Assembly: GCA_030704615.1 (NCBI GenBank)
Contig: CM060733.1
Location: 31,186,001-31,250,000 of the forward strand
Length of the DNA: 64,000 nucleotides
Source of the DNA: Takakia lepidozioides
Lineage: Eukaryota; Plantae; Bryophyta
Reading direction: 5' to 3'
Part shown: one piece after another, positions 2,587 to 47,100 of the stretch
Layout of the letters: each line of letters starts with the position of its first letter
How positions within the stretch are numbered: position 1 is the stretch's first letter
The notes under the pieces: model-generated
The model's input: the letters and a program-made list of their open reading frames with translations, nothing else
The model's database searches: none
What the model was told of the DNA's origin: nothing
Made by a program: the position numbers and the translations under genes

Positions 2587-5206
2587 TGTCAAGTTATTTG
2601 ACCACTAGTGTGAAACTAGCTAGGAAATAGCTAGCTTTTACATATTGACATTTGGGATTGGCCCAAGTGTCAATCCAGGGGTCAAGGCAGATTTAGGCCC
2701 TGGAGTGGTTATCTTCACGGCAAGCACGGGAGGCTCATCTTTCGCATGGGCTATGATGGGCTGTGGCGGGCTGTGACAGGCTGTGCCCTGTGGCCTATGG
2801 GGCTGTGAGGGGCTGTGGCCTTTGGGGCTGTGACCCCTGTGACCTGTGTAGGGCTGTGACAGGCTGTGCCATGTGGCCTGTGGGGCTGTGAGGGGTTGTG
2901 AGGGGCTGTGATAGGGTGTGCCCTGTGGCCTGTGGGGCTGTGACGAGCTGTGAGGGGCTGTGACCACTGTGACTTGTGTAGGGCTGTGACAGGCTGTGCC
3001 ATGTGGCCTGTGGGGCTGTGAGGGGCTGTGACAGGATGTGCCCTGTGGCCTGTGGGGCTGTGACCCCTGTGACCTGTGTAGGGCTGTGACAGGCTGTGCC
3101 ATGTGGCCTGTGGGGCTGTGAGGGGCTGTGAGGGGTTGTGACAGGCTGTGGCCTTTGGGGCTGTGACCCCTGTGACCTGTGTAGGGCTGTGACAGGCTGT
3201 GCCATGTGGCCTGTGGGGCTGTGAGGGGCTGTGAGGGGTTGTGACAGGCTGTGGCCTTTGGGGCTGTGACCCCTGTGACCTGTGTAGGGTTGTGACAGGC
3301 TGTGCCATGTGGCCTGTGGGGCTGTGAGGGGCTGTGAGGGGCTGTGGCCTTTGGGGTTGTGACCCCTGTGACCTATGTAGGGCTGTGACAGGCTGTGCCA
3401 TGTGGCCTGTGGGGCTGTGAGGGGCTGTGAGGGGCTGTGACAGGCTGTGGCCTTTGGGACTGTGACCCTGTGACCTTTGTAGGGCTGTGATAGGCTGTGC
3501 CTGTGGCCTTTGGGGTTGTGATGGGCTGTGACAGGCTGTGACCTGTGGCCGTGGGGGCTGTGACAGGCTGTGATATGTGGCCTTTGGGGCTGTGACGGGC
3601 TGTGATAGGCTGCGGCCTGTGGGGCTGTGACCCTGTGACCTGTGTAGGGCTGTGACAGGCTGTGGCCTGTGTGGGGCTGTAACGGCTGTGACCAGTGAGC
3701 TGTGTGGGCCTGTGCTAGTCTGTGGTGGCCCGTGTTGACCTGTGGACGGCCTGTGCTGACTCGTGGAGGCACTGGTGGACTGCCTAAGGATTGACATGTG
3801 GTCTTGAAGGCCGAATTTTGAAGCTCGTGGAGGGCGGTTTGAGGAGTATCTTCATGATATTCCCATGGTTATGCAAGTGAGGGAAGAGAGGAGAGGAAGA
3901 GTGTTGGGATGAGGGCATGCTGGGGTTAGGCATTGCTTTAGCTTCTCTTCCTTGTAGTTTCCACCCTCTCATTATGCCAAGATCTTTCCGTAGGTAGAGG
4001 CAAGAGTCAGTCCGGGTTTGGGCTGGGGTGTCATTGTAGGAGCAACACCGTGGAGTTGTTTTTGGTGTGGGAAAGTTGTCGTTCTGATTTCTTGTGTTTG
4101 GATCCTCTGCGTGACTGTGCGTCATGCTAGTTTTGTGTGGGCGCTTGTTTTTATAGGTGATTGGTCCGGATTTGTTCACCGGCCAATCCTAGAGCATGCT
4201 GTCGATGGTGAGGCTGGGGTGATGACCAGCCAGACCATCATTGTTTCTCCTGTGGTGAGGTTGGAGGTGATGACCAGCCAACCATAGGAGTGCTTGCGGT
4301 GGATGCAGGTACAAGTGTAGGCTATGTTAGGAACTTAGTATTCCAAACCATAAGCCGCAACAGGTTCTATACCTTGTGGAGAGGGGGTTAGGGATATGTT
4401 CATGACCGGTTGAATGACAGTTTGTCAACATGGAGGTGCACTAGTTGCTGGGGACAGTGCCAGTTCGAGCACTAGCGATACTAGTGGGTACACGAGACGA
4501 GGTGTGCGGTTTATGCCACCTTCACCTCCTGTGTCTTCTATGGAAGGTTATGATTCGGATTGTGAATCAGGATGACTCATACCGGCGGTGCAAGTTGTTT
4601 CCTTGCCATTGTTGTGGGACACAATGGAGGAGATGTATGGAGCTACCAAGGGGCCACGAAGGTATTTTGGGGCGGTGGGCACCATCGAGTTGGATGATTT
4701 TATCCAAGAGTTTGATAGTTGGTGTGATTTGCAGCAAATGCGCAATCCACAACTATTTACGCCTTTCATGGCATGGAAGGGGCTGTTTCAGCACCTTGAG
4801 GGGCCGCCTATGGATGATTACCATGAGTTCAGGCGGGGGCATGAGGTTGAGATCGAAGAGTGGAGGATGTACTAATCACCCGACTATGTCTCCATCACTA
4901 GGGGCACTAGAGTCACGAAGGCAGTGGCTACACCTGCCGCTGCACCGGCAGCTTCAGCAAGCAGCAGTGGGACTAGTAGACTGGTGGTACCGTAGCTACG
5001 ACGTCTACCCAAGCCACTACCGCACCAGCACCAGTACCCGTGCCTGCCTTCAACCCTATTGTGGAGTTCTTCGAAGAGTTGAGAGAGAACTACCAAGGGG
5101 TGAGGACAGAGAAGTTGCGGAGCTTGCAAGAGTTCCAACGGAAGCCTACTGAGAGCTTGAGGGAGGCTTTCACTCGCATGAGGCGCTTGATAAATGTAAC
5201 CCAAGG
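2587..5206 (+). mobile_element. 5' part (terminus, satellite, leader, gag fragment) of a DNMT-Gypsy family copy
   Basis: Starts TGTCAAGTTA like 36594. About 4000-4320 is homologous to 39550-39880. Gag peptides MEEMYGATKGPRRYFG and FNPIVEFFEELRENYQG match the 39963 ORF. Confidence 0.9.
2752..3780 (+). repeat. GT-rich tandem array (CTGTG/TGTGA-based ~9-11 bp subunits in higher-order units) inside the element leader
   Basis: Repeated gggctgtgacaggctgtgccatgtggcctgtggggctgtga-type units. A reverse-complement copy lies at about 16790-18070. Confidence 0.95.
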
Positions 5207-5235
5207 TGTCGCGCACCTCACTTTGGTAAGCTCCC
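5207..5235 (-). mobile_element. Short remnant of a chromovirus LTR end
   Basis: tgtcgcgcacctcactttggtaagctccc matches the LTR end at 11098 (tgttgcgcacctcacttcggtaagctccc). Confidence 0.75.
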
Positions 5236-5806
5236 TAGTGGTCAAATAACTTGACAGCTGTCGTGCGCATACATATCGCTACACAACTACATCGCTGTCT
5301 AAAACCACACAACACATGTGCACACCACACACTAGTATACCACTAGTCCACCACTAGTCCAACCACTAGTCCAACCACTATGCTGCCCACTATGGCAGTC
5401 ACTAGTCCACACAATCGCCCCCCTAGCTGGTGCTTAGGTCCCTCTAAGTTCAGGTAGCCACAAGATGTGATAGTTACCATAGCCTCACTAAGTCCTCCAC
5501 CACTATCCCTACTACACTCAAACTCGATAGATCAAGAGGTCGGGTGCAAGAGTTGCCCCATCGTTAGTCGCCGTCTTGCAACCTGCAAACTTGAGCTTGG
5601 GATCTCGTGTATTGACTCTTATGAGCTTGGCCTCCCATGTCTTATTAGCTGCCTCTAGTCATGTCCACTGCCACTATCCCAAGCAGTGTGGACACAACCA
5701 ATCTTCGTCAGGAACCTTCTCAAGAGGTGGTGTCAAGCATCCCATATGCCAACCCCTTAAGCATCGATCACACACCAGCATGGTGGCTGTTCTTTTGGCA
5801 GACCCA
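5235..5806 (-). mobile_element. DNMT-Gypsy fragment: PHD + 3' end joined head-to-tail to the first 22 bp of a 5' end
   Basis: 5259-5806 is homologous to 29259-29840 and to the reverse complement of about 47140-47620. 5235-5256 is the exact reverse complement of 2587-2608. Confidence 0.9.
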
Positions 5807-11097: not shown

Positions 11098-12452
11098 TGT
11101 TGCGCACCTCACTTCGGTAAGCTCCCCTTCAAGTCATAGTTACTCGCTTTGATGCGCGCGCCTGACTCCCAACCTGGCCGCCGGGCCAACTTGGAGCTTC
11201 GGCTGCTCACCGGGACATAACGGTCCCCCCTTCGCTCTCCCACTAAACCCTCCACCTGTTTGGGCCTAGCGGAATTCCCTTTTGTAGATGGCAGTCCGGA
11301 ACAGCTCCCCACTCTTTGGTCGCTTTCCGGCTCGCTCGCTTACTCTCTAGTTTTTGGTCACCAACGGGCTTGCACCGTTCTCGGGGTCACTACTCCCCTT
11401 ATATATACTTCTGTAGCTGTCCGCGGGGGTTTCACAACTAGCCATGCCATTTTATGGCGAACCACCACGAAAACCCTCGACTCCCGGTGATGAGTCGCGG
11501 TGAGTCTTGGCCCACTCACCACGGCCCCTATGGACCGTGATGAGTCCCAAGACTCCCCACGACTCCCACCACGAGGTCTCTGCCCCCATGGTGAGTCCTA
11601 TGCCACCCCCACTAAGTCCCGCTAAGCTACCACCACCCCTTGTGGAGCCACCCCCACCGCAACCCGGTGTGCGGGGCTCCACCTAGTGAGCGCCTCCGCC
11701 TCCTTGAGTGCCTTGGGCACTCAAGGGTGCTTCAGCCCCCCGTACCTATCGCTGCCGCTGCCCCCACCACAGGGGCAGCCCCTCATGTGTCCCGACCCCC
11801 TGCCCTCAAGGCAAAGGGCCGCGACACACACTCCTACCAACAGGGAGTCGATGTCCTCATCGACTTGTCCATTTTGTAGAAACGAACATCCAAGTTGTGG
11901 CGTCCCACATCAAGGAGTTTGTTTCCGCACCATGGCGTCCCATGGCAAAGAACCAAACCCCACACTTGACTCTACTCTCCACTAGCTAGTTCGGCCGACT
12001 TCTCCAAGTCCCGGCCAAGGGTGGAGCCTCTCAAGCTCCTCCCAGTGCACTCTTCTTGGCCTACTTCAAGGCCAAGGAACGATCCTCCCCGAGGATCGAA
12101 TCGCCTTACTGCAACAACATTGCTTGCGATCGCTCATGATGCCGCTTTTGGCATCACCTTGAGCAAGGGTTCACCTCGAACCCTCTTTGACTAGGAAGAT
12201 AACCTTGAACCAACCGTGCGCCCCAATCACTACAATTGGGTCCGTCTTGGAATGCTGGCATGAGGTACGGGAACACGCCGAAGCCGCACTACGACTTCCT
12301 CCCGAGGCTACACGATTATAGTACGTGAACGGAAGCACGTAGCTTCCGCGTTAGCCCGCACTACAAAGCAACCCCCTCGGTAGCGCAATTTTTGTACAAT
12401 ACAAGTTTTTGCAATCAGATTCCTAAGCTAGCTAAGCCGGGCTAAGCATGCA
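11098..12452 (-). mobile_element. 3' LTR of a chromovirus (Ty3/Gypsy)
   Basis: Follows the chromodomain stop and a polypurine tract GGGGAGGAAA on the minus strand. Starts TG (12452), ends GCAACA (11098), and interrupts the integrase fragment. Confidence 0.7.
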
Positions 12453-16513: not shown

Positions 16514-19500
16514 CCCGGACTGACTCTTGCCTCCACCTACGGAAAGGTCTTGGTCTAATGAGAGGGTGGAAACTACGAGGAAGAGAAGCTAAAGCAATGC
16601 CTAACCCCAGCATGCCCTCATCCCAACACTCTTCCTCTCCTCTCTTCCCTCACTTGCATGACCATGGGAATATCATGAAGATACTGCTCAAACCGCCCTC
16701 CACGAGCTTCAAAATTCAGCCTTCAAGACCACATGCCAGTCCTTAGGCAGTCCACTAGTGCCTCCACGAGTCAGCACAGGCCGTCCACAGGTCAACACGG
16801 GCCACCACAGACCAGCACAAGCCCACACAGCTCACAGGCCACAACCTGTCACAGCCCTACACAGGTCATAGGGTCATAGCCCCACAGGCCGCAGCCTGTC
16901 ACAGCCCAAAGGCCACATGTCACAGCCTGTCACAGCCCATCACAACCCCAAAGGCCACAGGCACAGCCTGTCACAGCCCTACAAAGGTCACAGGGTCACA
17001 GCCCCAAAGGCCATAGCCTACCACAACCCCTCACAGCCCCATAGGCCACAGGGCACAGCCTGTCACAGCCCGACACAGGTCAGAGGGGTCACAGCCCCAA
17101 AGGCCACAGCCCCTCACAGCCCGTCACAGCCCCACAGGCCACTAGGCACAGCCTGTCACAGCCCGTCACAGCCCACAGGCCACAGGGCACAGCCTGTCAC
17201 AGCTCGCCACAGCCCATCACAGCTCGCCACAGCCTGTCACATCCCGTCACAGCCCCACAGGCCACACAGCACAGCCTGTCACAGCCCCTCATAGCCCGTC
17301 ACAGCCCCACAGGCCACAGGGCACAGCATGTCAAGCCCCTCACAGCCCGTCACAGCCCCACAGGCCATTGGGCACAGCCTGTCACAGCCCGTCACAGCCC
17401 CACAGGCCACAGGGCACAGCCTGTCACAGCCCCTTATAGCCCGTCACAGCCCCACAGGCCATAGGGCACAGTTTGTCACAACCCCTTATAGCCCATCAAA
17501 GCCCCACAGGCCACGGGGCACAGCCTATCAAGCCCCTCATAGCCCGTCACAGCCCCACAGGCCACTGGGCACAGCCTGTCACAGCCCCTCACAGCCCCAA
17601 AGGCCTCAGGCACGGCCTGTCACAACCCTTCACAGCCCGTCACAGCCCCAAAGGCCTCAGGCACGGCCTGTCACAGCCCCTCACAGCCCATCACAGCCCC
17701 AAAGGCCACGGGCACAGCCTGTCACAGCCCATCACAGCCCCAAAGGCCAGGGGCGCAGCCCATCACAGCCCGTCACAGGCCCCAAAAGGCCACCGGCACA
17801 GCCCCTCACAGCCCATCACAGCCCCCAGGGCCACCGGCGCAGCCCGTCACAGGCCCTCACAGCCCGTCACAGCCCCGAAGGCCACCGTCACAGCCCGTCA
17901 CAGCCCGTGACAGCCTCGAAGGCCACCGGCACAGCCCCTCACAGGCCCTCACAGGCCGTCACAGCCCCAAAGGCCACCGGCGCAGCCCGTCACAGCCCCG
18001 AAGGCCACCGGCACAGCCCCTCACAGCCCGTCACAGCCCCCAAGGCCTCAGGGACAGCCCGTCACAGCCCCATCCATGGCCGCTCTGGCAGTTTAGCTAT
18101 TTCTCCAAGGGGTTTAGCCACGCCAAGCTAGGGTTTGTGTCTCTTGGACTCTAGGCTTCTTTCCACCGAGCTATGGCGGCTGTGAGGAAATCAGCAAGGT
18201 ATTCTTGCTCTTTCGGCTCCCACACACCACCATAGTAGCCCTAAGCCATGAGGTGGTTGCCACAAACCAAGCCTTCTTTCTCACTTAGCCTCCCCAAACA
18301 CGCCACTAAACTCAATGACAAACAACCAAGCCCTGCTGGTTCCCAGCCCTTGTGAGCACTCATTCAAGCACTCTCCTTGGCCATAGCATCTGTCTTAGAG
18401 CCTATTCCAGCCCCCTACACCTGCTGCTTCAAGAGTTGCGCTCCCTTCAAGCTTGAAGTTGAAACCCCAACTCACATAGGCCCTACAAGTGCTTTTCTTT
18501 CACTCCAAGTGGAAACCAGCCCTAGACCTTCCGTTCTAGCTCTCTAAAGCTTGCAAACAAGAGCCTCAATGGGCTGAAGGCATGCTCCACACATGCCCCA
18601 CTCTCACCATAAGAGAATCAGCTCCCTATCTTGGCTCCTTGGCTCCTTGATGCTCTCTAAGACAAGACTAAGCACTCCACAGCCCTTGCCAAGCTCCTGA
18701 AACCCTAAGGCTTACATTTCCAGCCACAAGACACTCCTCTTGTGGTGCAAGAACTTTTCTTCCAAGCTCTGAAACCCTAGGTGCACATTCCATGGCCTTG
18801 CCGCACCTCTTAGCTCTTGTTCCAGCCCCGCTCTTGCCATGGCAAGAGCCCTCATACCGCTGGAGTTTCAGATTGAAACCCCCAACTCAACATAGCCACA
18901 AATGCATTGGCTTGCGTACAAGAGAAATCAGCCATCTCTCTTCACTCATACCTCCTTATGAGCTTGAAGTTGGAGCTCCCAATAACTGTGACTTACATCT
19001 AACACCCTCGCAGCTCCACATTGCTGCAGCTCCTTAACTTGGCCTGCAGCTGAAGAAGACGACCACCAGTTCACCCACTCGAGACCAGCATCTCCCCCGC
19101 TTCACACTAGAAGCCCAAACTTGGTTGCCATAGCGTTGAGCTATGCAACGCCGCTCTTCAACATATGCTACCTGCCTCTCTATCCATTGCAAACCTGCAA
19201 CTTGTTCACCTTTGCACTCTATCCACTTTGGATAGGCTCATGTACGGATCCCTGCACTCTAGGCTGAACCGCTTCTCATGAAAACACAAGTGCTACAAAA
19301 CAACTCGAACCTGGCACTCACAGACTCGAGCTGATTTTTCTCGAGTGATAACGAAGAAGAATACAAGCACAAGCTCATGCGAGCTCACAAAGCTGAAGCA
19401 TAAACTCATGCATATATAACCTCATCACTCAAATACAAGTCAAGCCAAGTGCACCCCACGCCATGGGGAATCCACACTACGGCGCCATAGCTAGGCGCGG

Positions 19501-19672
19501 TGAGGCGAAACTCGAGAAAGATGAGCCTCCCGCGCTTGCCGTGAAGATAACCACTCCAGGGCCTAAATCTGCCTTGACCCCTGGATTGACACTTGGGCCA
19601 ATCCCAAATGTCAATATGTAAAAGCTAGCTATTTCCTAGCTAGTTTCACACTAGTGGTAAAATAACTTGACA
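16512..19672 (-). mobile_element. 5' terminus, leader and satellite of another DNMT-Gypsy copy (gag deleted)
   Basis: The minus strand starts TGTCAAGTTATTTT at 19672. Inverted homology to 2587-2742 and 2752-4018. The leader is fused to the protease region at 16512. Confidence 0.9.
16790..18070 (-). repeat. Tandem array (CACAG-based), reverse complement of the 2752-3780 array
   Basis: Repeated cacagcccgtcacagccccacaggccacagggcacagcctgt-type units. Confidence 0.95.
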
Positions 19673-29183: not shown

Positions 29184-29258
29184 TATACCAAGAGTTTGAA
29201 ATTAGAAGATGGCCTCTCAGCTACACACATTTACAGTAGGGGCCCATAAACTTGAATC

Positions 29259-31710
29259 TATCGTGCGCATACATATCGCTACACAACTACATCGTTGTCC
29301 AAAACCACACAACACATGTGCACACCACACACTAGTATACCACTAGTCCACCACTAGTCCAACCACTAGTCCAACCACTAGGCTACAACTAGTCAGTCAC
29401 TAGGCTGCCACTATGCTGCCCACTATGGCAGTCACTAGTCCACACAATCGCCCCCCTAGCTGGTGCTTAGGTCCCTCTAAGTCCAGGTAACCACAAGATG
29501 TGATAGTGACCATAATCTCACTAAGTCCTCCACCACTATCCCTACTACACTCAAACTCGATAGATCAAGAGGCCGGGTGCAAGAGTTGCCCCATCGTTAG
29601 TCGCTGTCTTGCAACCTGTGAACTTGAGCTTGGGATCTCATGTATTGACTCCTATGAGCTTGGCCTCCCATGTCTTGTTAGCTGCCTCCAGTCATGTCCA
29701 CTGCCACTATCCCAAGCAGTGTGGGACACAACCAATCTCCGTCAGGAACCTTCTCAAGAGGTGGTGTCAAGCATCCCATATGCCAACCCCTTGAGCATCG
29801 ATCACACACCAGCATGGTGGCTGTTCCTTTGGCAGACCCACAGAGCATGCACCTCAAACCTGTAGATACCACTGCCAAGTTTGGGTCAACTCTATCATCG
29901 ACATTGGGAAGGTGACATGACGCACAATCACGCACATGGTCCTTCCAAGTCAAGCCATCCCGACCCTCCAAGATCAGGACCCCTGAGGGCAACACCTCTC
30001 GAACCCTCAGAATAACACGCCCTGCAGTAACATCCAGAGTCGTAGGAGCAGTCTGCTGCAAATAAACATAGTCACCAGGGCTAAACCTCCGAACCTCAGG
30101 ACGATATCCTCCACCACGTATAGTGGCATACCTCAATGTATCACGATGCTGTGCAATGGCAAGGTTCTCAAAAGCCATGGGCATGACTTTCTTGAACAAC
30201 TCTGCACGCTGATCACATGCACGTACCCACACGTCCGGATCATCAAGGTTAAGGACTTAAGCAGTGTCCGTACGAATGGCTGCTGGCAAATCTGGTTCTC
30301 GGCCAAAGAGAAGGAAATATGGTGAGAAAGAGGCAAGTGATGCTTGCTTGCTAAACCTGTAGCCCATGGCTAGCCAAGGTACCTGAAGATCCCAATGTCC
30401 TAGGTGTCCTTTTTGCAAGCCATACTTGCGCAAATCCCTCTTCACCGTCTGCACCACTCTCTCTGCCAAGCCATCGGCCTCAAGATGATTCCGAGAAGTG
30501 GTACGGTGGTCTATCAAGGCTTTATCACACAAAGCCTGAAACTCCCCCAAGAACTTTTTCCCTTGGTCCGTGAGTACCTCAGCTGGAGCACCGAATCGGC
30601 TAAGCACACGATCCAGTAATGCATACGCAACCCCCTCACCAGCCTTGTCAGGCAATGGAACCAACTCAATCCACTTGGCAAAGGATGCAACTGTGGTGTA
30701 GGGGCGTTGAATGAAGCACGCACCCTGTCACACACCATACACCTAGCCACGAACTGTTGTACCTCTGTATGCATACCACGCCACCAATACTGCCCCTGCA
30801 GTAAACTATGAGTGCGTCGCACTCCAAAATGCCCCAACTCCTCATGGGCATGCCGCACTAACCGTGCACGCTGTGTTGGGTAAGGCACGATCCTCACCCG
30901 ACCATCCTCCCACACTCGAAGCAGGTGTATCCCCTCCCACTTGAACCTCTTGGGTCGTTGTAGGATCCGATCCCTCTCCTTGGCAGTCACAGTGGCTGCC
31001 ATGTCTCCAGTACGAAGGTAGTCCAACACAACTGAATCCTCATGTATATCTCTGGCACCACCTGTCTGATCACTAGCCTCAGGGTCCTCAAAACTCCGTC
31101 TACAGTCATCCCTGTTGTAGGTCCAACCTGACCTCCCGATGCCAAGATACACAAAAAGGCAGGTGCATGTCATCCCGGCACCATCTCCTCATCCGTCTCA
31201 CCATGCCACCGAGCTCCAGTGTCATCCTGCTGGCTCGTGCATGGATTGCGACTCAATCCATCCGCATCCCTATTGACCAAACCCGGTCGATGCAAAACCT
31301 AAACACATCTATCATGCTCCTCCACCGTAGCGCGAGAGGCAAAGCAATTCCTGTAAGCCTCAGGAACTGTCGTATACGTCGTCTTTCTCCTCTAGTGACA
31401 ATAGGTCCAATGTCAAGCTCCCAATTGCCCTTCGTAACTGCAACCTTAAGTCCAGCAGACTTAGAGGTAGAGGACGCGTCCCGTGGTTGCTATGCCGCAA
31501 CCTCTTGAGCAGTATTCTCTGCCTGCTCAGTCAATGACAAGGCCTCATCCTGCCCCATCATCTCATCCTTGAGGACCTCCTCAACCCGAGAAGAATCCCC
31601 AACCTCATCCATCACAGCCGCCTTGGCTGTCAACTCCCTCTGAACCTCGAGCACCTCCCACGTATGCCATGGATGTCTACACCTTGTGGTCCTCACATGC
31701 TCGCCCCCAT
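29259..31710 (-). mobile_element. 3' part of a DNMT-Gypsy copy (DNMT tail, RT/RH deleted, integrase, PHD, 3' terminus)
   Basis: Peptides match 43950-47275, including CMLCGSAKGTATMLVCDRCSRGWHMGCLTPPL. The minus strand ends GCGCACGATA at 29259. Confidence 0.93.
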
Positions 31711-35880: not shown

Positions 35881-37659
35881 CTCTCTATCGGTTCTGATGG
35901 TTTCTATGGCACCTTTTAGCTAAGTCTTAGAAGCGCTAGCTTGTCTTCTGCCTTCGGTGTTTCTATGTGTTTTATATTCTTATTTCATCTCGCATTAGTG
36001 TCTCAAGTGTGCCGCTTTACTCCTGTGCGCCTGTCTTCCCTATAGAATGTACATTCCAGAGTAGTGCTCCTACGAGGTCTGGGCTTTGGGTTTGTTGGTC
36101 GAGGCAGGTGGCAGCTAATTTACGGAGGAAGTCATTGCAGATGAGCCCGACTTATCTTCAAAGGATTTTTGTGTTGGTTACAAGTGTGTAGAGTTTCTTC
36201 GGTTTGGGTGGTGTCTGTGAGCAGATACTCAGCGCGATCAGTTGCAGGGCCATCTATTTGAATTCTCAAAGAAGGCTTCTTCAAGCCTGTCCTATCCTCT
36301 CGGTTCTGCAATTATCATCCCCTCAATTCCAAGTCTCTAACCTTGGGTTTGGCTGCTTCCTGCTTTTGCTTGTGCGCTCTCTCCTTGGCTCGTAGTCTCA
36401 CTCGCAGTTTTTCCTCTTTCGTATTTAGTGTTATTTGGTGACATTCCCCGTTAGGAATTCCGCGCTTCCTATGTTGGTCTTGGTTAGAGAGTCAAGTTGG
36501 TTTCCGGTGATTTTTTTTCTCTATCTCTAGAGTTACGATGACGTTCCGGGGCAGCACCAGTGGTAGACGAGGACGCGGGAGAGCCCTGCTTCCTGTCAAG
36601 TTAAATAAGCACAGTGTGAAACTAACTAGAATAAAGCTAGTTATTTGTATTTAACACTTGGATTTAGGTCAAGTGTTAAATCAGGTGTCAAGTTTAGTTT
36701 GACACCTGAACCGTCTTATCTTCACGAGAGCGTCAGTCGCGCGGCTCATCTCTCTCGAGTTGAGCCTGCGCGACCGAGCTCCTTCATCGTTTAGAACTGA
36801 GTGTACTTATGATGGGAGGATAGGTTGTTGTGGGGTGGAGTCCCCATAGCTTGGGGTGCCCCTGGCTCGACTATTATCTGAAAGAGTGATGATGAGATGG
36901 ATTTCATGTTTCTTGTGTTAAGAGTGTGTTCTTAGCTTTCTTATCACTCGAGAGAGATCACCTGTCTAGTTTTTTTTCTTGTACTGCTAAGCTAGATAGA
37001 GTTCTTTTATGTTAGCACTATGTCGATGGTCGAGGTGAAGAGAGCGGCATGCTTGATGACAACGTAGTTCTCCAACTCGTCATAAGCCATACCAATCTCG
37101 TCCAAGAAGCGGTTTCCGTTTTGTTGTTGTTGCACAGGAGCAATGTATTTTGGAGGAAGTTGATTCGGGGCAGCAGAAGAATGTGTTCACCATAGCTATA
37201 AGGGGAAGACGGGATTCCACGCTTGCAAGCTACCTGCGGAAGCAAGCTGTGATCTAGTTCGAGTGCGAGGTTCTGAAGACAGACCTCGATCGCAATGATC
37301 TTGTCGAAAGGCTGTGCAGGGTAAATGATCCATAGCTACTTGGACGAAGGTCCTGAAACCACTGTCGTATAGCAGCTGTATAGCAGCTGATAGGGTTTCT
37401 CTCATTGCCAGTTGTAGGAGGGTGGTAAGCGCGTGCTCCAGAGATAGCTCCCTGCCTGAGCCGGAATTCCACCAGAAGAAAAACGGTTGAAAAACTGAGC
37501 TGCATGCCATCCGTGCAGCGGGGGAGTACGGTGGCAGACACCTTGGCTTGGTGGGCAGATCACAATTGTATGTTCGAAGCGCAAACAGGCAGTAGCGTTG
37601 AAGGCCAAGCTCCCGTTCACAGTGTCCATCATGGCTGCAGGGAAAAACATCCGAAAAGC

Positions 37660-37986
37660 TCCTACACAGGGTGACATTCACTTGCGTCCTGAACGCATGT
37701 GCCAGCCTAGGAGCTATTGAAAAAGGGCAAGGAGGTACATGCTGAGATCATCAAAGCTAGAGTTGGGCCAGATATCCCTCTTGAGACTGTCCTTGCCAAC
37801 ATGTATTCCAAATACAGAAGCATGGAGGACGCATGGTGTTTGACAATATGGCTCGACAAGATGTGGTCTCATGGAGCTAAATCAGTGCAGGATATGCTCA
37901 GCATGGTTGTGATAGGGAGGCTTTTGAGATGTATGTACAAATGCAATAGGGAGGGGTGCAGCCCGACATCATAACATTCATTTGCT
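37660..37986 (+). pseudogene. PLS-class PPR fragment located inside the element leader
   Basis: VTFTCVLNACASLGAIEKGKEVHAEIIKA...NMYSKYRSMEDA / VFDNMARQDVVSW...GYAQHG...GVQPDIITFIC, with a frameshift and stops. Confidence 0.85.
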
Positions 37987-39962
37987 TCCAGTGCATGTCC
38001 CACTCTCACCTGTACTCATTCAGATCGGTTGCTCCACTCACCGATTGCTCCATCTATCCATCTCTCATTCCATTTCTTCAGCAGCTCGACTGCCCGATTC
38101 GGGGTCGACGTTCATGCCCTTTTGAAGCTGGTTCCATGTCCAGCGCATGCTGTTGGAGCACCTGATAGCCCATCCACAATTGCAGTGGGGGCTGAGAGCT
38201 AATGCCTTCGAGGATTGGCTGATGTTCGTTTGGGGGGGGGCCTGAATTTCCTTGGTTCGGAGTACGAGCTGCCTTCGTCGCTGTGGATGGTGCTGGAGAA
38301 TCGCTTGAGGCTGGGGCTGGTGTGCACCGCCCTACTGGCATGCTGGATGTTGCAGGCGGGGGGGAGGGGCCTCCGTTGGGAGAAAACTCGGTCTTGTATG
38401 ATTGCATTTCCTGGGGCGATCGTTGGTGGTTACTATCTGGTCTCGTGCGGACTTGGTTTGGAGTGCTTGGTCGTCAGCGAAGTATTGCTCGTTAGAGATG
38501 TGCATGTCGCTGACTTCTTCGTCCCCTCCGATTGGCCTCAACTGAGCAGAGCCTTCGTCTTTGTTGCTCATCTTGGCCGTATCCTGTTTCACTAGAGTGT
38601 AGAGGTTGAGGGAAGCCTATGGGGTGCTAAGCCTGTTGAGCAGGGGTGTGTACTGTTGATACGAGCTTGGGTCAGGGAGCTACTTGGTTTAGAATGATAC
38701 AAGCGCGAAGGATCAAAGCCCCAGAGTCAGCATAGTCGGGGAACGGCCTCGGGAACCCGTAGATAACCAGGGAACAGGGAACCAAGACAAGTATTGAAAA
38801 AAAAAAAAAAAAAAAAACGGAGTTTTCTTTGTATTTGTTTTGTCTTATTAAATAAATAAATAAAGGGGAAAAGAAAAGAAAAATGTGTTATGTTTAAAGA
38901 GCCTGGTTGGTCATATCTTTATCAATGAGCTCCGTTTGACTCAGTTTTTGAGGGGATAACTGCAGAAAAGGGATATCTACCTATCTAGACCTGGTTTTTG
39001 TTTTTGGGACTCTGCTAAAAATCTATGGAATTTTTAGAGTGTGAGTGTGCCATGAAAAATCCACAATTCTGTTTCTAGAACCTGTTCTGGTCTACATGAG
39101 AGATAAATCTGGGGATGTACTCCTTGTATGGCTGGGGGAAATGAGGACGTAATTGAAAGGCATGTCTCTTCTCTTAGCCTGTGCACACAAGGGGACAGGA
39201 TTTATGTTTCCCAAGGAACTCAGACTGATTTGAGTGGAGAACAGTTGGACGAGTTGAGTGTTCAGTGAGCGGGAGATAGTAGAGTGTTGCTTTGTCTCTA
39301 CCTGGCAGAAAGAGGAGGAGGGTTGGTTAGAGCGAGCTACTGTAGCTGGGACAAGGTTAGTGGCAGGTTTCTGGACATAGATATACCTCCTACACCTTAC
39401 TATCATGCAGAGCGAGGCACTTTGAGAGAAGTCTGGCAATTGATAGCATAGATTAGGATTAGATCTTGCTGGGTCGGGCTTCTATTCTTCCCCTCCATCT
39501 CTGTACTATTTTCATTACCTTGTACTTGTAGTTGCCAAAGCCTCTCTTGGTGGAGGCCAGTCAGTCCGGGGTTTTGGGTTGGGATATTCTGCAGGTCAGC
39601 ACTGCAGATGGATTTTGGTGTGGGGGTGTTGATGTTTTGATTTCTTGTGTTTGGATCCCCCCCAACACCTGCATGCTTGACTGTGCGCCATGTTGGTTTT
39701 GTGTGGGCGCTTGCTTTCATAGGGATTAGGCCGGATTTGATCACCGGTCAATCCTACAATATGCTGTCGGTGGTGAGGCTGGAGTGATGACCAGCAAGAC
39801 CACCAGTGTTTCTTCTATGGTGAGGCTGGGTTGATGACCAACCAACCATAGGAGTTCTTGCGGTGGATGCAGGTGCAGGTGCCCTGAGCCACTGGGATAT
39901 GACCCTTAAACTGCAACACTGCCCACCCGTGTCACTATTAGAATTAGTACTAGAGCATTATA

Positions 39963-41618
39963 GTGTCACGTGGGGAGGTGCACATTGTGAGTGTCATCAC
40001 GGAGTTACCCAAGGGTTTTGAGGGGAGTACGGCTATAGGCAGTAACAATGAGAGTGGGTTCACAAGACGAGGTATTCGGTTCAGACCACCTTCGCCTCCA
40101 CACTCAACTAGTGTAGAGTCAGACACAGACTCGGAGGCTTCATCAACAGGTGTACAGTTTCATTCGCCATTGTTGTCGGACGACATGGAGGAGATGTATG
40201 GAGCTACCAAGGAGCCTCGTAGGTACTCTGGAGCTGTGGGCACAATCGAGTTGGATGACTTTATCCAGGAGTTCGACAGCTGGTGTGATTTGCAGCAGAT
40301 GCGCAATCCACAGCTATTCACCCCATTCATGGCGTGGAAGGGACTGTTCCAGCATTTGGAAGGCCCGCCTATGGACGATTACCACGAGTTCAGGCGAGGA
40401 CATGAAGCAGAGATTGAGGAGTGGAGGATGTATTGGTCACCTGACTACGTCTCCATTACTCGAGGCACGACGCGACCAGTAGCTGCATCAGTACCAATAT
40501 CTCCCACTGCCAGCACTAGTAGTGGAACAAGTAGTGCCGGTACTTCTGCAGGTGGTACCAGTTCAAAATGTGCTACTACTCCTCCTGCCATGACTACAAC
40601 ACATGTGCCTAGATTCAACCCGGTGGTGGAGTTCTTCCAGGAGTTGCGGAGGAACTACCAAGGTGTACGGATTGAGAAGCTGCGAAGTTTGCAAGACTTC
40701 CAGCGCAAACTCAGTGAGAGCCTGCGAGAGGCGTACACTCGTATGAGGCGCTTGATAAGTGTGACCCAAGGGGTTACTGAAGCTCAGGCAATCCAGTTTT
40801 GGTATGGAATTCTGGACAAGGAGCTCAAGAGAAAGGTGCGAGATGCAACCCTGTTACAAGTAGCCCAACCCACATTAGCAGATGTGTTTCTGCTGGCTGA
40901 GCGGATTGAGCTCAACATGATGGAGGAGCGAGTTGTTACCATTGGATTTGGCAAGGACATGCCTGCACGAGGCGCAGCTGCCAGCCCACAGGCACAAGGG
41001 ACTGCCCAACAGCGTGGTCAGGGGGGCAAGGTTTCCCAACCCAAGTTCCATGGAGCTTACAGGGGAACTCAGGTGCAGAGGCCCGTGGCATCTTTTGCAG
41101 GCCAACAACAACCAGGGGTGGTATGTTGGACATGTGGAGGACCCCATGTCAAGAAGATTTCCCAGAGAGTGGCAAAAGGCTGGCACAAGCACAGCCTGCA
41201 CAGTTGCAGTGTGGGCATTGTGGCAAGTATGGGCATGGAGATGCCCAGTGTTATATCTTGCATCCTGAGTTACGCCCAGGCCAGTTCCAAGGGAACAATG
41301 GTGGCCAGGGGCGGTGGACCAGCCCAGAGAGGACGAGGTCGTCGGGCACGAGGTGCAGGCCAAGGGCAAGCTCAACATGGCCAAGGACGCGGAGGTCAGG
41401 GTGTTGACCAAGGCATGGCCAACCGGCTTCAGCAGCTAGAGCAGAGGCTCGCTGCCATGGCTACAGCTCAGGCGGTACCGGCTCCCAGGCGGGATAGTCC
41501 ACCTCCTACGCCTGAGGGAGGAGATATGGGAGGCATGGGATTCATGTGGAGCAGCACTACCACTAGTGCAGGTGGAGTCTGCTGCAGCTGTGACTCGAGG
41601 AGCAGCACGAGTTCCTGA
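39963..41618 (+). CDS. Gag (frameshift-disrupted) with two zinc knuckles
   Basis: Retrotransposon gag-like QRKLSESLREAYTRMRRL, knuckle CWTCGGPH and, in the 41123 frame, CGHCGKYGHGDAQC. The true start codon is uncertain. Confidence 0.75.
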   Translation: MSRGEVHIVSVITELPKGFEGSTAIGSNNESGFTRRGIRFRPPSPPHSTSVESDTDSEASSTGVQFHSPLLSDDMEEMYGATKEPRRYSGAVGTIELDDFIQEFDSWCDLQQMRNPQLFTPFMAWKGLFQHLEGPPMDDYHEFRRGHEAEIEEWRMYWSPDYVSITRGTTRPVAASVPISPTASTSSGTSSAGTSAGGTSSKCATTPPAMTTTHVPRFNPVVEFFQELRRNYQGVRIEKLRSLQDFQRKLSESLREAYTRMRRLISVTQGVTEAQAIQFWYGILDKELKRKVRDATLLQVAQPTLADVFLLAERIELNMMEERVVTIGFGKDMPARGAAASPQAQGTAQQRGQGGKVSQPKFHGAYRGTQVQRPVASFAGQQQPGVVCWTCGGPHVKKISQRVAKGWHKHSLHSCSVGIVASMGMEMPSVISCILSYAQASSKGTMVARGGGPAQRGRGRRARGAGQGQAQHGQGRGGQGVDQGMANRLQQLEQRLAAMATAQAVPAPRRDSPPPTPEGGDMGGMGFMWSSTTTSAGGVCCSCDSRSSTSS

Positions 41619-41972
41619 GCCACGAGGTGCAGAGGTGGAATTGGATTCACAGCGTGGGGAGGCAAGCCGTCAGGCGAGGCTTCCCTAGTCATTCACATTG
41701 GCGGAGACTGTGTCGAGCTATCCATGGCACCTAGTTCTTGCCCGACTGTTACCGAGGCGGAGTTACTATGCCATTGGGGAGAGCTACACGTGCAGCACTG
41801 ACACCAAGGCTAGTGCAGTCGATGTGTTTTTGGGGGCAGCCACCTCTGTGTGTCAAGCCCCACTATTCTCGGCAACCATGATTGCGACGCCGGGGGTAAG
41901 ACCAGCTGCAGTGTTTAGACTAGCAGCAACACTCTGTGAAGTGGGGAGGTCACTTCATCTTTTGCGGAGTTA

Positions 41973-44159
41973 GTGGAAGGTGTAGTGGCAGAGGGATCCT
42001 CGGATTTGAGGGTCAAGACTGCCACGGCTGCGCCATGGCAAGCTGCAGCTGCCAAGTTGACGGAGCTGCCAGCTAGGCCAGCCTTTGAGCGCGCCATGGT
42101 AACACCTGGAGTTGTCTTGTTAGACAACCAGGATGACATTTTCTCTTTGAATGGACCGGCAGGCAAGAAGTACCGGCCACTGCGGGTCTTGTTGGACTCG
42201 GGAGCTCAGCCATTGATGTTGGGCAGAGCTGCTATTGCAGGTTTGGGCCTCATGGAGGCGGATATGGAGCCTTGTCTTTTCCAAATACAGACATCTCTGG
42301 GAGGATCAGAGCAGGCTTGGGGCATGACATGGCGTGAGTTGGCCATTAGACTGCAGCCGGATCATCCTATAGATGGCTCAGTGATGCGAGCCAAGGCCAT
42401 TGTGATAGACGCGGTCTCTTACGATGTCCTCATTGGTGGAACAATGTTATATCCTATGGGCTTCACCCTGGACTTTTGGGAGGAGTCAGCATCCTATAGG
42501 CCTGGATGGCAGTCAGGGGATGGTCGTCGTGCACAGCTCCCTGTGACATTCATTGGGGGTATTGTGGCTGCCCAACGGGGCAAGATGCCAACACTAGCCG
42601 CCTTTACAGCTGCAGTTAGTTGGCCTAGAGAGTTGCTGGAAGGCAATGCCCATGTAGAGGATGTGCCACCTTTAGCAGAGCAGGATGACATGTATGGTAC
42701 GGCGGAGTTGCCTGCCATGGTTGCTCACACTCCATTGTGGGGTACGAGCAAGGATTTGCAGCAGGCTGCTGATGGACGGGTACAACAAGCCTGGGTAGAG
42801 GCCTTCGTACCGTCAGGAGAAGAGGAGAGTGCGGTGATTGCACCAGGACCACCTCAGTTGTCGCCATTGGACACCACACCTCTTATGTGGCAGTGCCCGG
42901 ATAAAGACATATGTCTTCTGGACTTGTTTGGCGGGATCAGCACTGGATTAGCTGCAGTACTGCAGGCAGGTGTACGAGTTCAACGTTACGTGTATGTGGA
43001 GAGGGATGAGACTGCACGACGCGTCTCACTGCGCCATGTTGCTCAGTTGGTACAGCAGTACCCTGATTTGTTGCCAGTGTCTGCAGTGCGTGGATACCAA
43101 CAAGCCTTGCCAACAGACATTTCGTTGCTGGGGGCGCAGGATTTGGAGCAGGTTGGCTCCATTGATCTGGTAGTGGCAGGTTGGCCCTGCCAAGGGCATT
43201 CATCAGCCGGACATGGCAATGGATTGCGAGACTCGATGACGGGTCTGTTTTGGAAGATGGTGCGGGTTTTGCGCCACTTGCAGCTTCATCAAGCTGTATC
43301 TCCAGCATACATCTTGGAGAATGTGCCACTGATGGGTGATTCTCGGGCCAGGGTGATGGCCAGTGTGCATCAAGTCCGGTCGTGGCTTGGGTCACCAGTG
43401 CTGCTGGATGCAGCTGCAGTGGGGTCACGGGCTCATCGTCCACGGCTATGGTGGATTATCTTGATGCCACCCGCACTGCTCAAGCGTGCATTTGATGGGG
43501 TGCAGCGGCCAGCACACCTCACAGTGGATAGCATTTTGGACACCGGGAGGCAGTCTCAACGTGTGAGACACGCTGACCGTTTGCCTTTGGCAGTGGTCAA
43601 CAAAGTGGGTCAACCACGAGCAACATTACCTACACTGCTCAGCTTCCCAGGATCCCATGCTTTTCGGGATGGTGGACCTGGCCTCTTGTGGGATAGCCAG
43701 TTGCAACAATTAGTGGAGCCCAATGCTGACGAGCGCGAGCGAGCGATGGGTTTTACCACTGGTACCACGGCGGTGTCATCTCTTTCTGAGGCATCACATC
43801 GTCAGGTGTTGGGGCAAGCAATGGATCTCAATTGCTTGACCTGGATTATCAGCTTGGCTATGGCTGAGCAGCGCAGAGTACAGAGTACACTTCCCTTCAT
43901 GGTCTCCTCGCCTACCGAGACGGTACAGGCAGCGAGTGGGGGCAAGCAGGTGAGGACCACGAGGTGCAGGCCGCATCCATGGCACACGTGGGAGGTGCTC
44001 GAAATTCAGAAGGAGTTGGCAGCCAAGGCGGCGGTGATGGATCACGTTGGGGATTTTTCTCGGGTTGATGAGGTCCTCAAGGATGGGATGATGGGGCAGG
44101 GTGAGACATTGTCACTGACAGAGGAGGTAGTGGTCACTGCTCAAGAGGTTGCAGCATAG
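41973..44159 (+). CDS. Aspartic protease fused to a DNMT3-like C5 cytosine methyltransferase
   Basis: Protease LLDSGA (Asp at 42195) and DVLIG. DNMT at about 42909-43850: motif I LDLFGGISTG, II YVERD, IV AGWPCQ (43182-43190), VI ILENV (43317-43325), VIII AHRPRLWW, IX ERERAMGF, X VLGQAMD. Confidence 0.95.
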   Translation: MEGVVAEGSSDLRVKTATAAPWQAAAAKLTELPARPAFERAMVTPGVVLLDNQDDIFSLNGPAGKKYRPLRVLLDSGAQPLMLGRAAIAGLGLMEADMEPCLFQIQTSLGGSEQAWGMTWRELAIRLQPDHPIDGSVMRAKAIVIDAVSYDVLIGGTMLYPMGFTLDFWEESASYRPGWQSGDGRRAQLPVTFIGGIVAAQRGKMPTLAAFTAAVSWPRELLEGNAHVEDVPPLAEQDDMYGTAELPAMVAHTPLWGTSKDLQQAADGRVQQAWVEAFVPSGEEESAVIAPGPPQLSPLDTTPLMWQCPDKDICLLDLFGGISTGLAAVLQAGVRVQRYVYVERDETARRVSLRHVAQLVQQYPDLLPVSAVRGYQQALPTDISLLGAQDLEQVGSIDLVVAGWPCQGHSSAGHGNGLRDSMTGLFWKMVRVLRHLQLHQAVSPAYILENVPLMGDSRARVMASVHQVRSWLGSPVLLDAAAVGSRAHRPRLWWIILMPPALLKRAFDGVQRPAHLTVDSILDTGRQSQRVRHADRLPLAVVNKVGQPRATLPTLLSFPGSHAFRDGGPGLLWDSQLQQLVEPNADERERAMGFTTGTTAVSSLSEASHRQVLGQAMDLNCLTWIISLAMAEQRRVQSTLPFMVSSPTETVQAASGGKQVRTTRCRPHPWHTWEVLEIQKELAAKAAVMDHVGDFSRVDEVLKDGMMGQGETLSLTEEVVVTAQEVAA

Positions 44160-47100
44160 CAACCATGGGACGCGTCTTCTACCTCTAAGCCTGCTGGACT
44201 CAAGGTTGCAGTCACGGAGGACAACTGGGAGCCTGATGTGGGACCTATAGTCACCGGAGGAGAGAAACGACGTATATGGCGGTTCTTGAGGGCTTACAGG
44301 AACTGCTTTGCCTTCAGTTTGAAGGACTTAGGAGCACTGAAGGGTCAAGAGATTCGCATTGAATTGGCTACTGACGCGCCAATCTTTCAGAGACCCTATA
44401 GATACAGTGACATGGAGAGGTCCTTGATTCAGATGAGAACTCAGGACCTTTGGGAGGCTGGTTTGGTGGAGCTATCTTGGGGAGAGTATGCTTCAGCCAC
44501 AGTGATGCCACCCAAGAAGGATGTCTATGGCAATTGGATGGAGAGACGTATGTGCGGTGATTACCGGCCTGTAAATCGTCAGACCAAGTCCGATAGGTAT
44601 GCCATGCCGACACCAGAGGAGATTTTTGATGCCATTGGGTATGCCAAGGTCTTTAGCACATTGGATTTACAATCCGGATATCACCAGTTGCCGATCAATG
44701 AGGCGGATAAGCAAAAGATGGCATTCTGGGGGATCAATGAGCACGGGAAGGATTGCCTATACCAGTGGCGGTTCTTACCATTTGGGCTTAAAAACGCTCC
44801 TGCTGAGTTTCAAAGAGTCATGGACAGGATTCTAGCAGGGGTGGAGTTTGCTCGGTGCTACATAGATGACATCATCATCTTTAGTGCTACGGTGGAGGAG
44901 CATGAGAGACACCTTCAGGGGGTATTTGAGCGCTTGAGGGCGCACGGATTGAAGTTACATCTGGGAAAGTGCAAGTTTTTCCACAACCAGATTGAGTATC
45001 TGGGTCACATGATATATCCTCGAGGATTGGGGGTACAACAGACTAAGGTAGAGTCCATTGCACAGGTTTGACGCCCCACGGATGTGAGCCGAGTTCGAGC
45101 TTTCATGGGGTTAGCAAACTATTATAGACGGTTTGTTAAGGGATTTAGTGCCATTGCAAAGGCTCTAACCAAGCTGATCAAGGTGGACCAGGAGTGGCAG
45201 TGGGAAGATGAACAAGAACAAGCTTTTCAAGAGCTCAAGGCAAGGTTGACCTCGGCGCCCATCTTGAGACGGCCTATTAGGGGGCGTCATTTTCAGCTGC
45301 ACACAGATTGGAGCATGTTGGGGCTTGGAGCGGTGCTCACACAGGTGGATGATGAGGGAAGAGAGTTCGTAGTGGCTTATGCTAGCCGCTCAAACAACGT
45401 TGCAGAGTCTAAGTATAGCTCATATGAGGGAGAATGCTTAGCTGCAGTGTAGACCGTGACACACTTTAGGTGCTATCTATACGACAATCTCTTCACCCTT
45501 GTCACGGATCACCAACCACTCAAGTGGTTGATGGAGTCAGACAAGCTTACGAGGAAGCTTGCACGGTGGGCACTCATCCTTCAAGAATATGACTTTCAGG
45601 TTGTGCATCGACCGGATTTGGTCAATCGCAATGCAGATGGGTTGAGTCGCAATCCATGCACGAGCCAGCAGGATGACACTAGAGCTCGGTGGCATGGTGA
45701 GACGGACGAGGAGATGGTGCCCGGATGGCATGCATCTGCATTTCTGTGTATCTTGGCAGTGGAAGGCCAGGTTGGACCTGCGATCAAGTGTCTGAGGACC
45801 CTGAGGCCAACAATGAGCAAGGTGGCGCCAAAGATATACATAAGGATTCAGCTGTGTTGGACTATCTTCGCACTGGAGACACGGCAGCCACTGTGACTGC
45901 CAAGGAGAGGGATCGGATCCTACAACGAGCCAAGAGGTTCAAGTGGGAGGGGACACACCTGCTCCGAGTGTGGGAGGATGGTCGAGTGAGGATTGTGCCT
46001 CACCCAACACAGCGGGCACGGTTAGTGCGGCATGCCCATGAGGAGTTGGGGCATTTTGGGGTGTGACGCACTCATAGCCTACTACAGGGGCAGTATTGGT
46101 GGCGTGGTATGCACACAGAGGTGCAACAATTTGTGGCTAGGTGCATGGTGTGTGACAGGGTGCGTGCTTCATTCAACGCCCCTACTCCACAATTGCACCC
46201 TCTTCCGATCATGGGATTGGGCTACAGGTGGAGTCTTGACTTCGCAGGGCCATTGCCACTGACCATGCGCACAACAAGTACGTGTTGGTGATGGTGGAGC
46301 ACTTCTCCAAGTGGATTGAGTTGGTTCCATTGCCTGATAAGGCTAGTGAGGGAGCTGCGTATGCATTCTTGGATTGTGTGCTTAGTCGATTCGGTGCTCC
46401 AGCTGAGGTACTCACAGACCAAGGGAGAGAGTTCTTGGGGGAGTTTCAGGCTTTGTGTGACAAGGCCTTGATAGACCACCGTACCACTTCTCGGGATCAT
46501 CCTGAGGCCGATGGCTTAGCAGAGAGAGTTGTTCAGACAGTAAAGAGGGGTTTGCGCAAGTATGGCTTGCAGAAGGGACACCTAGGAGATTGGGACCTTC
46601 AGTTACCCTGGTTAGCCATGGGCTACAGATTCAGCAAGCAAGCATCACTTGCCTCCTTCTCACCATACTTTCTTCTCTTTGGCTGAGAGCCGGATTTGCC
46701 TACATCCATTCGCAGAGAAGATGCTACAGTTCTTAACCTTGACGATCCGGACGTGTGGGCACGTGCATGTGAGCAGTGTGCAGAGTTGTTCAAGAAAGTC
46801 ATGCCCATGGCTTTCGAGAACCTTGCCATTGCACAACACCGTGATACGTTGAGGTATGCTACCATACGTGTGGGGGCTATCATCCTGGGGTTCGGAGATT
46901 CAACCCTGGTGACTATGTCTATCTGCAGCAGACTGCTCCTACGACTTGGATGTGACTGCAGGACGTGTTATTTTGAGGGTTCGAGAGGTCTTGCCCTCAG
47001 GCGTCTTGGTCTTGGAGGGTCGGGATGGCATAACTTGGAGGGACCATGTGCGTAATTGTGCGCCATCTCACCTTCCGAATGTCGATGGTAGGATTGACCC

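Follow-up and report, generated by a model that had tools for sequence, protein, structure and literature searches.

How do the two ends of a retroelement come to lie head to tail, two bases apart, in the genome of a moss? The question is raised by a 64,000-nucleotide stretch of Takakia lepidozioides DNA (assembly GCA_030704615.1, contig CM060733.1, positions 31,186,001 to 31,250,000; hereafter the window), a nest of retroelement fragments of which at least seven belong to one Ty3/gypsy family. In one of these, which we call the junction copy X, the minus strand reads ...GTATGCGCACGACA (ending at 5259), GC (5258-5257) and TGTCAAGTTATTTGACCACTAG (5256-5235), that is, the 3' end of the element, two bases and the 5' end. 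An initial annotation of the sequence had reported this order and this spacer correctly, and had proposed that the joint is the fossil of a circular or tandem intermediate. We consider it on balance probable that the joint at 5257-58 is instead the middle of a long terminal repeat (LTR), the genomic ends of the element lying inside the LTR, likely as its integrase cuts ...GACA-NN-TGTC... (NN being the two spacer bases) in circular DNA. In the following, A denotes the 5' terminal segment, which starts with TGTCA, and B the 3' terminal segment, which ends in ACA; numbers give their order along the element.

Both terminal sequences recur in the window far above chance. The 22 letters of the 5' end are found at three sites (2587 on the plus strand, 5256 on the minus strand and, with one mismatch, 19672-19651 on the minus strand), where 0.01 would be expected by chance, and the 21 letters of the 3' end also at three (5259 and 29259 on the minus strand, 47620 on the plus strand; chance 0.00). 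The region around B1 of the junction copy (5248-5808) is 90.8% identical to the corresponding region of another copy, D (29249-29842).

The joint is also found outside this assembly. We found 14 public sequencing runs, none of them listed as RNA, of which 11, from five studies, contain part of the stretch, and used their Logan contigs; those of runs X1, X3, X5 and X6 were aligned to 4900-5700 at 85% likeness and those of X1, X5, X6 and X8 to 5170-5310 at 90% (X with a number is a run, X alone the junction copy). Short contigs bridging A2-GC-B are present in X1, X5 and X6, which represent three studies, with aligned parts that start at 5235-5251 and end at 5276-5309. In X5 these contigs reach depths of 227 and 311, in X6 of 69 and 109, where the shallowest contigs lie at about 5, and the B-GC-A joint is multi-copy in the genome. 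One 88-letter contig of X5 reads as 41 bases of B, GC and 43 bases of A. Before 5235, the loose letters are those of a normal 5' region in 12 X1 contigs (agreement 0.99) and one X5 contig (agreement 1). The joint also occurs with another 5' subfamily, distinct from the first beyond TGTCAAG, in seven X1 contigs and one X5 contig. No other spacer letter or length reaches a share of 10% or more in the public contigs at 5170-5310. The initial annotation had named a unique joint, random spacers and a lack of read support as grounds for giving up its proposal; B-GC-A is not unique, its spacer is fixed and contigs of three studies carry it. The end at 5259 also passes into unlike flanks (agreement 0.36) in 30 X1 contigs of the 90% alignment, or 38 of the 85% alignment, and because these flanks are diverse ...GACA is a true genomic end too. 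Run X8, which is labelled as a different organism, covers only the gag part.

The full arrangement is found in relatives, which we obtained as 79 metagenome loci fetched with a profile of the family's DNA methylase open reading frame (ORF). Self-comparison reveals the layout A1-coding-B1-A2-B2 in L053, L063, L067, L068 and L077, with an A of 276-344 bp and a B of 96-176 bp, and a partial layout in L011, L017, L034, L037, L057, L059 and L075. In 11 of the 12 loci holding the B-A joint (...ACA, two bases, TGTCA...) the spacer is exactly 2 bp long, and its letters are GC (L011, L017, L053, L057), AC (L034, L067, L077, L068, L059), TC (L063) or AT (L075); the arms of the joint are partly mutated in L063, L067, L068 and L059. 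A 0-bp joint at 5118 of L059 was rejected as a chance match in the integrase/PHD coding part, the true joint of this locus having its 2-bp AC. The window's own joint was not found as an exact pattern in the metagenome contigs.

The position of the joint in these relatives is regular. The 15 A starts that lie upstream of the methylase (14 distinct loci, L049 being the same as L053) all lack a B before them; the nine that lie downstream all follow B and 2 bp. A2 is followed by B2 in the eight of these nine joints whose contig continues and in L068, and never by a second full unit. This arrangement does not support the tandem intermediate that the initial annotation had offered next to the circular one. 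B2 starts at the same base as B1, and this base directly follows the final one of A2. A motif search gave seven of these A|B fusions, each downstream of the methylase, and inspection by eye showed one in L057 and one in L068. Four of the five loci that hold both the A1 start and the B2 end have 4-bp duplications there (L053 AAGG, L063 CATA, L067 GGTC, L068 CATA). Elements of this type are abundant in metagenome contigs whose methylase ORFs resemble liverwort and moss ones. A distant relative, L069 (32% identity), contains a direct repeat of about 4 kb (886-4957 and 7545-11666, offset by about 6.7 kb), which could be a true head-to-tail tandem.

Judged by the signals on either side of it, B + NN + A has every mark of a single LTR, in which B would be the start of the unique 3' part (U3) and A the rest of U3, the repeated part (R) and the unique 5' part (U5). 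Within it, B follows immediately on a polypurine tract and extends to ...GACA; after the 2 bp, A extends from TGTCA... to the ...CA before a predicted primer site. In the window, AGCTAGGGGGGCGA is the polypurine block that immediately precedes B in three copies, X (5428-5415), C (47521-47534) and D (29461-29448); it is nearly identical in relatives, where B1 directly follows the G-run in 10 of 10 loci inspected. A longer block before B, TTAGAGGGACCTA..CCA.CTAGGGGGGCGA (5428-5450, 29461-29480, 47500-47534 and L053:10190-10237), is near-identical in the window and in distant relatives whose methylase ORFs share about 45-60% identity, suggesting that a cis signal extending beyond the G-run is conserved.

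At the other border, the bases right after A1 in the relatives complement a stretch about 165 nt into A, over 14 nt in L053 (16 nt by eye), 12 in L067, 13 in L077 and 9 in L063 as found by script; we estimate the chance of a 12-mer complement at about 4 in 10,000. In copy C the 12 nt after the end of A (36947-36958) complement 36748-36759, at A positions of about 155-166, and in copy E the complement is 9 nt exactly and 11/12 by eye. TATA-like motifs were seen by eye about 30 nt upstream of the complementary stretch in L063 and L067. This complementarity would agree with self-priming of the kind seen in Tf1/Sushi elements and predicted for the Tcn1 clade in mosses (PMC6317226), the complemented stretch inside the LTR being the place where transcription is predicted to begin. 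Unlike the present family, Tf1 and Sushi-Tcn1 elements have ordinary LTRs at both ends. A tRNA-type primer site (searched as the initiator-Met motif) gave a single site with one mismatch in the window, at 50808 and outside the elements, and ARAGORN found no tRNA genes in the window. A deletion derivative at 31700-31726 (minus strand) has the A end and the 12-nt primer site joined to mid-pol (equivalent to 43938 in copy C); its CTCGAGAAAGAT at 31726-31712 is, by eye, a 12/12 complement of the upstream stretch of copy E. It could stem from misplaced strand transfer in reverse transcription.

Integrated copies have A as their first and B as their last segment and are flanked by target duplications of 4 bp. 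Within the window this is best seen in copy C, flanked by TTCC (36590-93 and 47621-24), whose diverged 5' end at 36594 was found via a weak match. Because the family's duplication is 4 bp, the 2-bp spacer of the joint is no target duplication, as the initial annotation had argued. No direct repeats of at least 25 nt, internal or terminal, were found in copy C except for two weak chance pairs, and since this complete copy has no terminal repeats, integrated copies can be without LTRs. The annotation's remark that LTRs are missing therefore describes copy C well and the family less so: its LTR is B + 2 bp + A, with the polypurine tract before it and the primer site after it. An identical LTR at both ends of the integrated copy is absent in copy C and in the relatives, which carry A alone at their 5' end and B-NN-A-B at their 3' end.

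By its proteins and end chemistry the family is Ty3/gypsy. Its Pfam domains are a C5 DNA methylase, reverse transcriptase, RNase H, H2C2, rve integrase and a PHD finger. The pol order of reverse transcriptase, RNase H and integrase (H2C2 + rve) is found in the ORFs of copy C (44160-46686), in copy D (30257-31188) and in L053, L063 and L067, three loci that also encode the methylase and the PHD finger. The methylase (PF00145) lies inside the pol frame, at 41940-44159 on the plus strand (E 2.9e-11) and at 15201-16184 on the minus strand, and in L067 it shares one ORF with reverse transcriptase and RNase H. Its closest named relatives, among 52 matches, are hypothetical proteins of Marchantia (55%), Calypogeia (59%) and Sphagnum (46%); the relatives in liverworts and mosses have 46-60% identity, and metagenome proteins match as well. 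A tyrosine recombinase (Phage_integrase) was not matched in 19 window ORFs and 19 ORFs of the relatives, all of at least 110-120 amino acids, and for this reason we place the family outside the DIRS order. The ends, TGTC...GACA, follow the TG...CA pattern. A PHD finger follows the integrase core in the window (29678-30256, minus strand) and in L067:13841-14995, at a place where chromoviruses have a chromodomain; a second integrase with a chromodomain, of another lineage, lies at 12487-13671 (minus strand).

If B + NN + A is the LTR, the life cycle of such an element can be pictured as follows. Transcription would run from inside A1 to inside A2, giving an RNA with R at both ends and B1-NN as U3. 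Self-primed reverse transcription, as in Tf1, would convert this RNA into linear DNA with two B-NN-A LTRs, and joining of the ends of the linear DNA would give a 2-LTR circle and create the A|B joint. Integrase would nick 3' of each CA at one NN site, leaving CA-3'OH ends with 2-base 5' overhangs, and the opened circle would be inserted as an A1-I-B1-NN-A2-B2 provirus, I being the internal region. Opening of a 1-LTR circle, or cutting of both LTRs of linear DNA, would give repeat-less A-I-B copies such as C, which should be dead ends because the 3' R is lacking. Proviruses would be circularly permuted, because integration likely uses ...GACA-NN-TGTC... inside the LTR. A fixed spacer length with letters that drift between lineages would arise because the nicks fall 2 bp apart. 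In bacterial insertion sequences of the IS3, IS30 and IS256 families the abutted ends of the circle junction, separated by a few bp, are the reactive substrate of a DDE transposase; these are DNA transposons without reverse transcription, and the likeness is one of analogy only.

The steps that involve cutting have counterparts in retroviruses. When retroviral ends are processed 3' of CA, two bases remain as a 5' overhang (PMC1636480), and the ends predicted above would have this shape. Integrases are also reported to cleave the palindrome at LTR-LTR junctions: in the 2-LTR circles of prototype foamy virus (PFV) and human immunodeficiency virus type 1 (HIV-1) it is internal to the circular DNA and made of two CA ends that abut (PMC1180852, PMC1905944), and a similar cut is what we propose here. 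The viral palindrome lies at the LTR-LTR joint and linear DNA is the usual substrate; in the moss family each LTR would contain the site, which is heritable, and A2|B2, the joint between LTRs, would come to lie in the interior of the provirus. From the positions of the target duplications we infer cutting at the palindrome at 5253-5262. The initial annotation had suggested that the palindromic junction is an integrase substrate, and ...GACA-NN-TGTC... does mark integration ends with 4-bp duplications, while the cutting itself is a deduction. The palindrome is present as described, its perfect 10 bp being partly the luck of a GC spacer, as relatives have AC, TC or AT. A circle is the best reading of the anatomy, as first proposed; the joint would not be the fossil of a single event, being inherited through RNA as part of the LTR. 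Terminal redundancy, for which read-through transcription had been offered as a possible source, would be provided by A1 and A2, transcription being predicted to begin within A; tandem read-through is unneeded.

Several observations weigh against this proposal or limit it. Circle cutting by integrase, the transcript start and the primer site are predictions from sequence. The window contains no complete A-I-B-NN-A-B copy, and past the joint in the window's own genome A is seen to continue for only about 45 nt. The B type in the tail of the junction copy differs from that of its B1, which a simple 2-LTR circle of one cDNA does not predict. Among the relatives, L037 is deleted across the joint, L077 is without a target duplication, and no primer complement of at least 8 nt was found by script in L017. 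The repeat-less form occurs in L004, L006 and L045, where the polypurine tract and B are followed by unlike DNA, as in copy C, with no A2-B2; as copy C and these three relatives are without A2-B2 and many B ends are randomly flanked, this form may be common. The metagenome loci may furthermore derive from few host species, L049 and L053 being one locus.

One other explanation, which we regard as unlikely, is that the family replicates by the route of DIRS/PAT elements, in which the B1-A2 joint would template the bridging of single-stranded or incomplete cDNA ends before insertion and no 2-LTR circle would be cut. Template bridging of this kind has been proposed for tyrosine-recombinase retroelements. 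The split direct repeats A1-B1-A2-B2, with an internal B1-A2 joint made of right end and left end, are known in PAT, Toc, Kangaroo and Ngaro (PMC4157794), and a repeat layout of the DIRS kind is noted in a figure legend for KnitGypsy-Dnmt3 (PMC5890265). PAT, Toc, Kangaroo and Ngaro encode a tyrosine recombinase, whereas the ORFs scanned here hold a DDE integrase (H2C2 + rve) and no tyrosine recombinase, and TG...CA ends with 4-bp duplications are integrase hallmarks. Furthermore, the first base of B is the one next to the polypurine tract, and the last base of A the one next to the primer site. Because these borders match, A2|B2 is a precise joining of the U5 end to the U3 start, as from end-joined finished linear cDNA, and therefore resembles the joint of a 2-LTR circle.

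Improbable in our view is that the joint has no role of its own and is the remnant of head-to-tail tandems, formed by adjacent insertion or concatemer integration, with later deletions inside the second unit. Three features of the moss genome would suit this: the second unit is only 22 + 28 bp here, the public contigs show A only for about 45 nt past the joint, and joints that go back from 5303 to 5247 and from 5303 to 5250 represent other shortened units of the form B-GC-A(short)-B(45 bp). The relatives speak against it. The 2-bp spacer holds in 11 of the 12 loci with a joint, across several lineages; A2 leads to B2 and never to internal sequence in the eight joints with a continuing contig and in L068; no B precedes any of the 15 upstream A starts; and the start of B2 and the end of A2 match the polypurine-tract and primer-site borders every time, which random deletions would not reproduce. 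The absence of head-to-tail full units at these joints, together with the integrase and the target duplications, also sets the family apart from tandem endogenous pararetrovirus-like arrays. A chance juxtaposition or an assembly artefact of this repeat-rich region is hardly credible and, for B-GC-A, largely refuted: the window does hold several inversion or deletion joints (32002, 35263, 14758-15021) and none of the contigs listed spans 5206-5259, but contigs of three independent studies bridge the joint at multi-copy depth, it recurs in relatives from other samples, and its termini lie far above chance. The features discussed here and below are collected in Table 1.

Table 1. Features of the joint-bearing family in the window (window coordinates; a dot marks features without strand).
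Feature	Position	Strand	Basis or remark
B1, 5' part of the LTR (U3), 156 bp	5259..5414	-	3' end ...GCGCACGACA at 5259
2-bp spacer GC between both terminal sequences	5257..5258	.	direct sequence
A2, truncated here to the first 22 bp of the element 5' end	5235..5256	-	exact match to 2587-2608
Palindrome GACAGCTGTC, 4-bp inverted ends and self-complementary spacer	5253..5262	.	plus-strand letters; predicted integrase cut site
28-bp tail GGAGCTTACCAAAGTGAGGTGCGCGACA, ending ...GTGCGCGACA	5207..5234	-	occupies the expected place of B2
Polypurine block AGCTAGGGGGGCGA of junction copy X	5415..5428	-	plus-strand priming predicted to start right after
Copy A (insertion target)	2587..5206	+	5' end A[1-157], tandem repeats, partial gag; broken at 5206 by minus-strand insert
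Copy C, complete A-internal-B unit, 11,027 bp	36594..47620	+	gag, DNA methylase, reverse transcriptase, RNase H, integrase
A of copy C, 353 bp, ends TTATCA	36594..36946	+	predicted transcript start near 36748
Predicted self-priming primer site CTCGAGAGAGAT of copy C	36947..36958	+	complement of 36748-36759
Polypurine block (47521-47534) and B (47535-47620, 86 bp) of copy C	47521..47620	+	motif, sequence
Copy D: polypurine block (29461-29448) and B1 (29447-29259, ends ...GCACGATA)	29259..29461	-	
Possible decayed joint of copy D: GA + TTCAAGTTTATGGGCCCCTAC	29235..29258	-	about 17/24 like GC+A2; weak
Copy E: A1 (19672-19346) and predicted primer site (19345-19334)	19334..19672	-	random flank upstream
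Copy Y: G-run 11230-11225 and B (about 11223-11098), ends ...GTGCGCAACA	11098..11230	-	adjoins broken integrase fragment (10262-11097, +)

The junction copy itself is defective: only 22 bp of its A2 remain, and they are joined to 28 bp from a B of another type. This 28-bp tail (5234-5207, ...GGTGCGCGACA) comes directly after A2, is also GACA-ended and was missed by the initial annotation. It equals the last 28-30 bp of the other B type, that of copy Y (30 bp at 93% to 11097-11126), and adjoins the exact gag break of the plus-strand copy A at 5206|5207. Because the 28 extra bases reach this break, the end of the insert is 5207 and not 5259. The homology of copy A gag to copy C gag fades near 5206-5212. 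Past 5206 the gag of other copies continues in 34 X1, 4 X5, 2 X6 and 1 X8 contigs at 90% likeness and in 45 X1, 13 X3, 3 X5 and 1 X6 contigs at 85%; the rest of the gag of copy A was not found beyond the insert within the window. The joint of the 22-bp and 28-bp pieces (5234|5235) is without read support in the contigs listed. The tail could go back to a deleted circle joint, to a recombinant or to nested copies between which DNA was later lost. We also considered that the 28 bp might be tRNA-like or a splice donor and rejected this, as TGG/GT is not conserved in the second copy at 11101-11125.

The remaining copies of the nest show further variation. In copy A, homology to copy E stops at A position 157 (2743-2748, plus strand), which is the predicted transcript start, and passes directly into tandem repeats; copy A is for this reason without R, U5 and primer site. 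Tandem-repeat blocks lie between the 5' end region and gag or methylase at 2748-4018 (plus strand) and 16512-18070 (minus strand), with start-to-start spacings of 10-130 nt, and those of different copies are about 75-85% similar. Past the end of copy D neither a longer A2 nor a B2 was found, the local alignment scores of 35-38 being within the shuffle range (maximum 45). We also considered whether copy E (5' end at 19672) and copy Y (3' end at 11098) are a single insertion; because their flanks have no common duplication, this was rejected. Eight bases past the end of copy C there is a B-end-like TATGCGCGACA (47625-47636, plus strand), and copy C may have been inserted beside the end of an older element. 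A small inverted reverse transcriptase fragment (14758-15021, plus strand) lies inside minus-strand pol, and with the further inversion joints at 32002 and 35263 it points either to heavy rearrangement of this region or to local faults in the assembly. Two frames beside the nest resemble host genes, one for a PI-PLC X-domain protein (52099-53184, minus strand) and one for an organelle-type ribosomal protein L7/L12 (54009-54707, plus strand).

The closest described system is KnitGypsy-Dnmt3 of the alga Klebsormidium nitens (de Mendoza et al. 2018), whose figure legend gives its repeats as 'the same as that of a DIRS retrotransposon' and its domains as Gypsy (PMC5890265). It is likewise a Ty3/gypsy element with a C5 DNA methylase in the pol frame. 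The A-coding-B-A-B layout, compared by that legend, is shared by L053, L063, L067, L068 and L077, the window holding only the truncated version and A-I-B. The 52 protein matches of our family, in contrast, include no Klebsormidium protein. In its available part the KnitGypsy-Dnmt3 paper maps no ends, target duplications, polypurine tract, primer site, spacer or mechanism (PMC5890265), and the corresponding part of the moss Tcn1 paper has no occurrence of 'methyltransferase' or 'PHD' (PMC6317226). In the literature searched, which covers few subscription journals, this 2018 legend was all that turned up on gypsy elements whose repeats are split or whose attachment site lies within the LTR, and no account was found of ends, spacer, duplications, polypurine or primer mapping, or a circle-cutting integrase for such elements.

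If the proposed mechanism is true, a retroviral-type integrase uses an attachment site internal to the LTR and needs a circular substrate, which would change the notion of the circle as a 'dead end' for at least one retroelement lineage. It would also link LTR retrotransposons, the split-repeat elements with tyrosine recombinases and the circle junctions of bacterial insertion sequences. Programs that search for LTR pairs should miss or mis-cut such elements, since their ends carry no matching repeats, and the elements also carry a DNA methylase. A stronger version of the proposal, on which we are evenly divided, is that a bryophyte Ty3/gypsy clade with a DNA methylase integrates only from circles opened at a heritable ...ACA-NN-TGT..., every functional provirus being permuted to A-internal-B-NN-A-B with the LTR-LTR joint buried inside. 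Such a clade would be the DDE-integrase counterpart of the tyrosine-recombinase DIRS/PAT elements, and a natural case of the long-abandoned model in which the circle is the precursor of integration.

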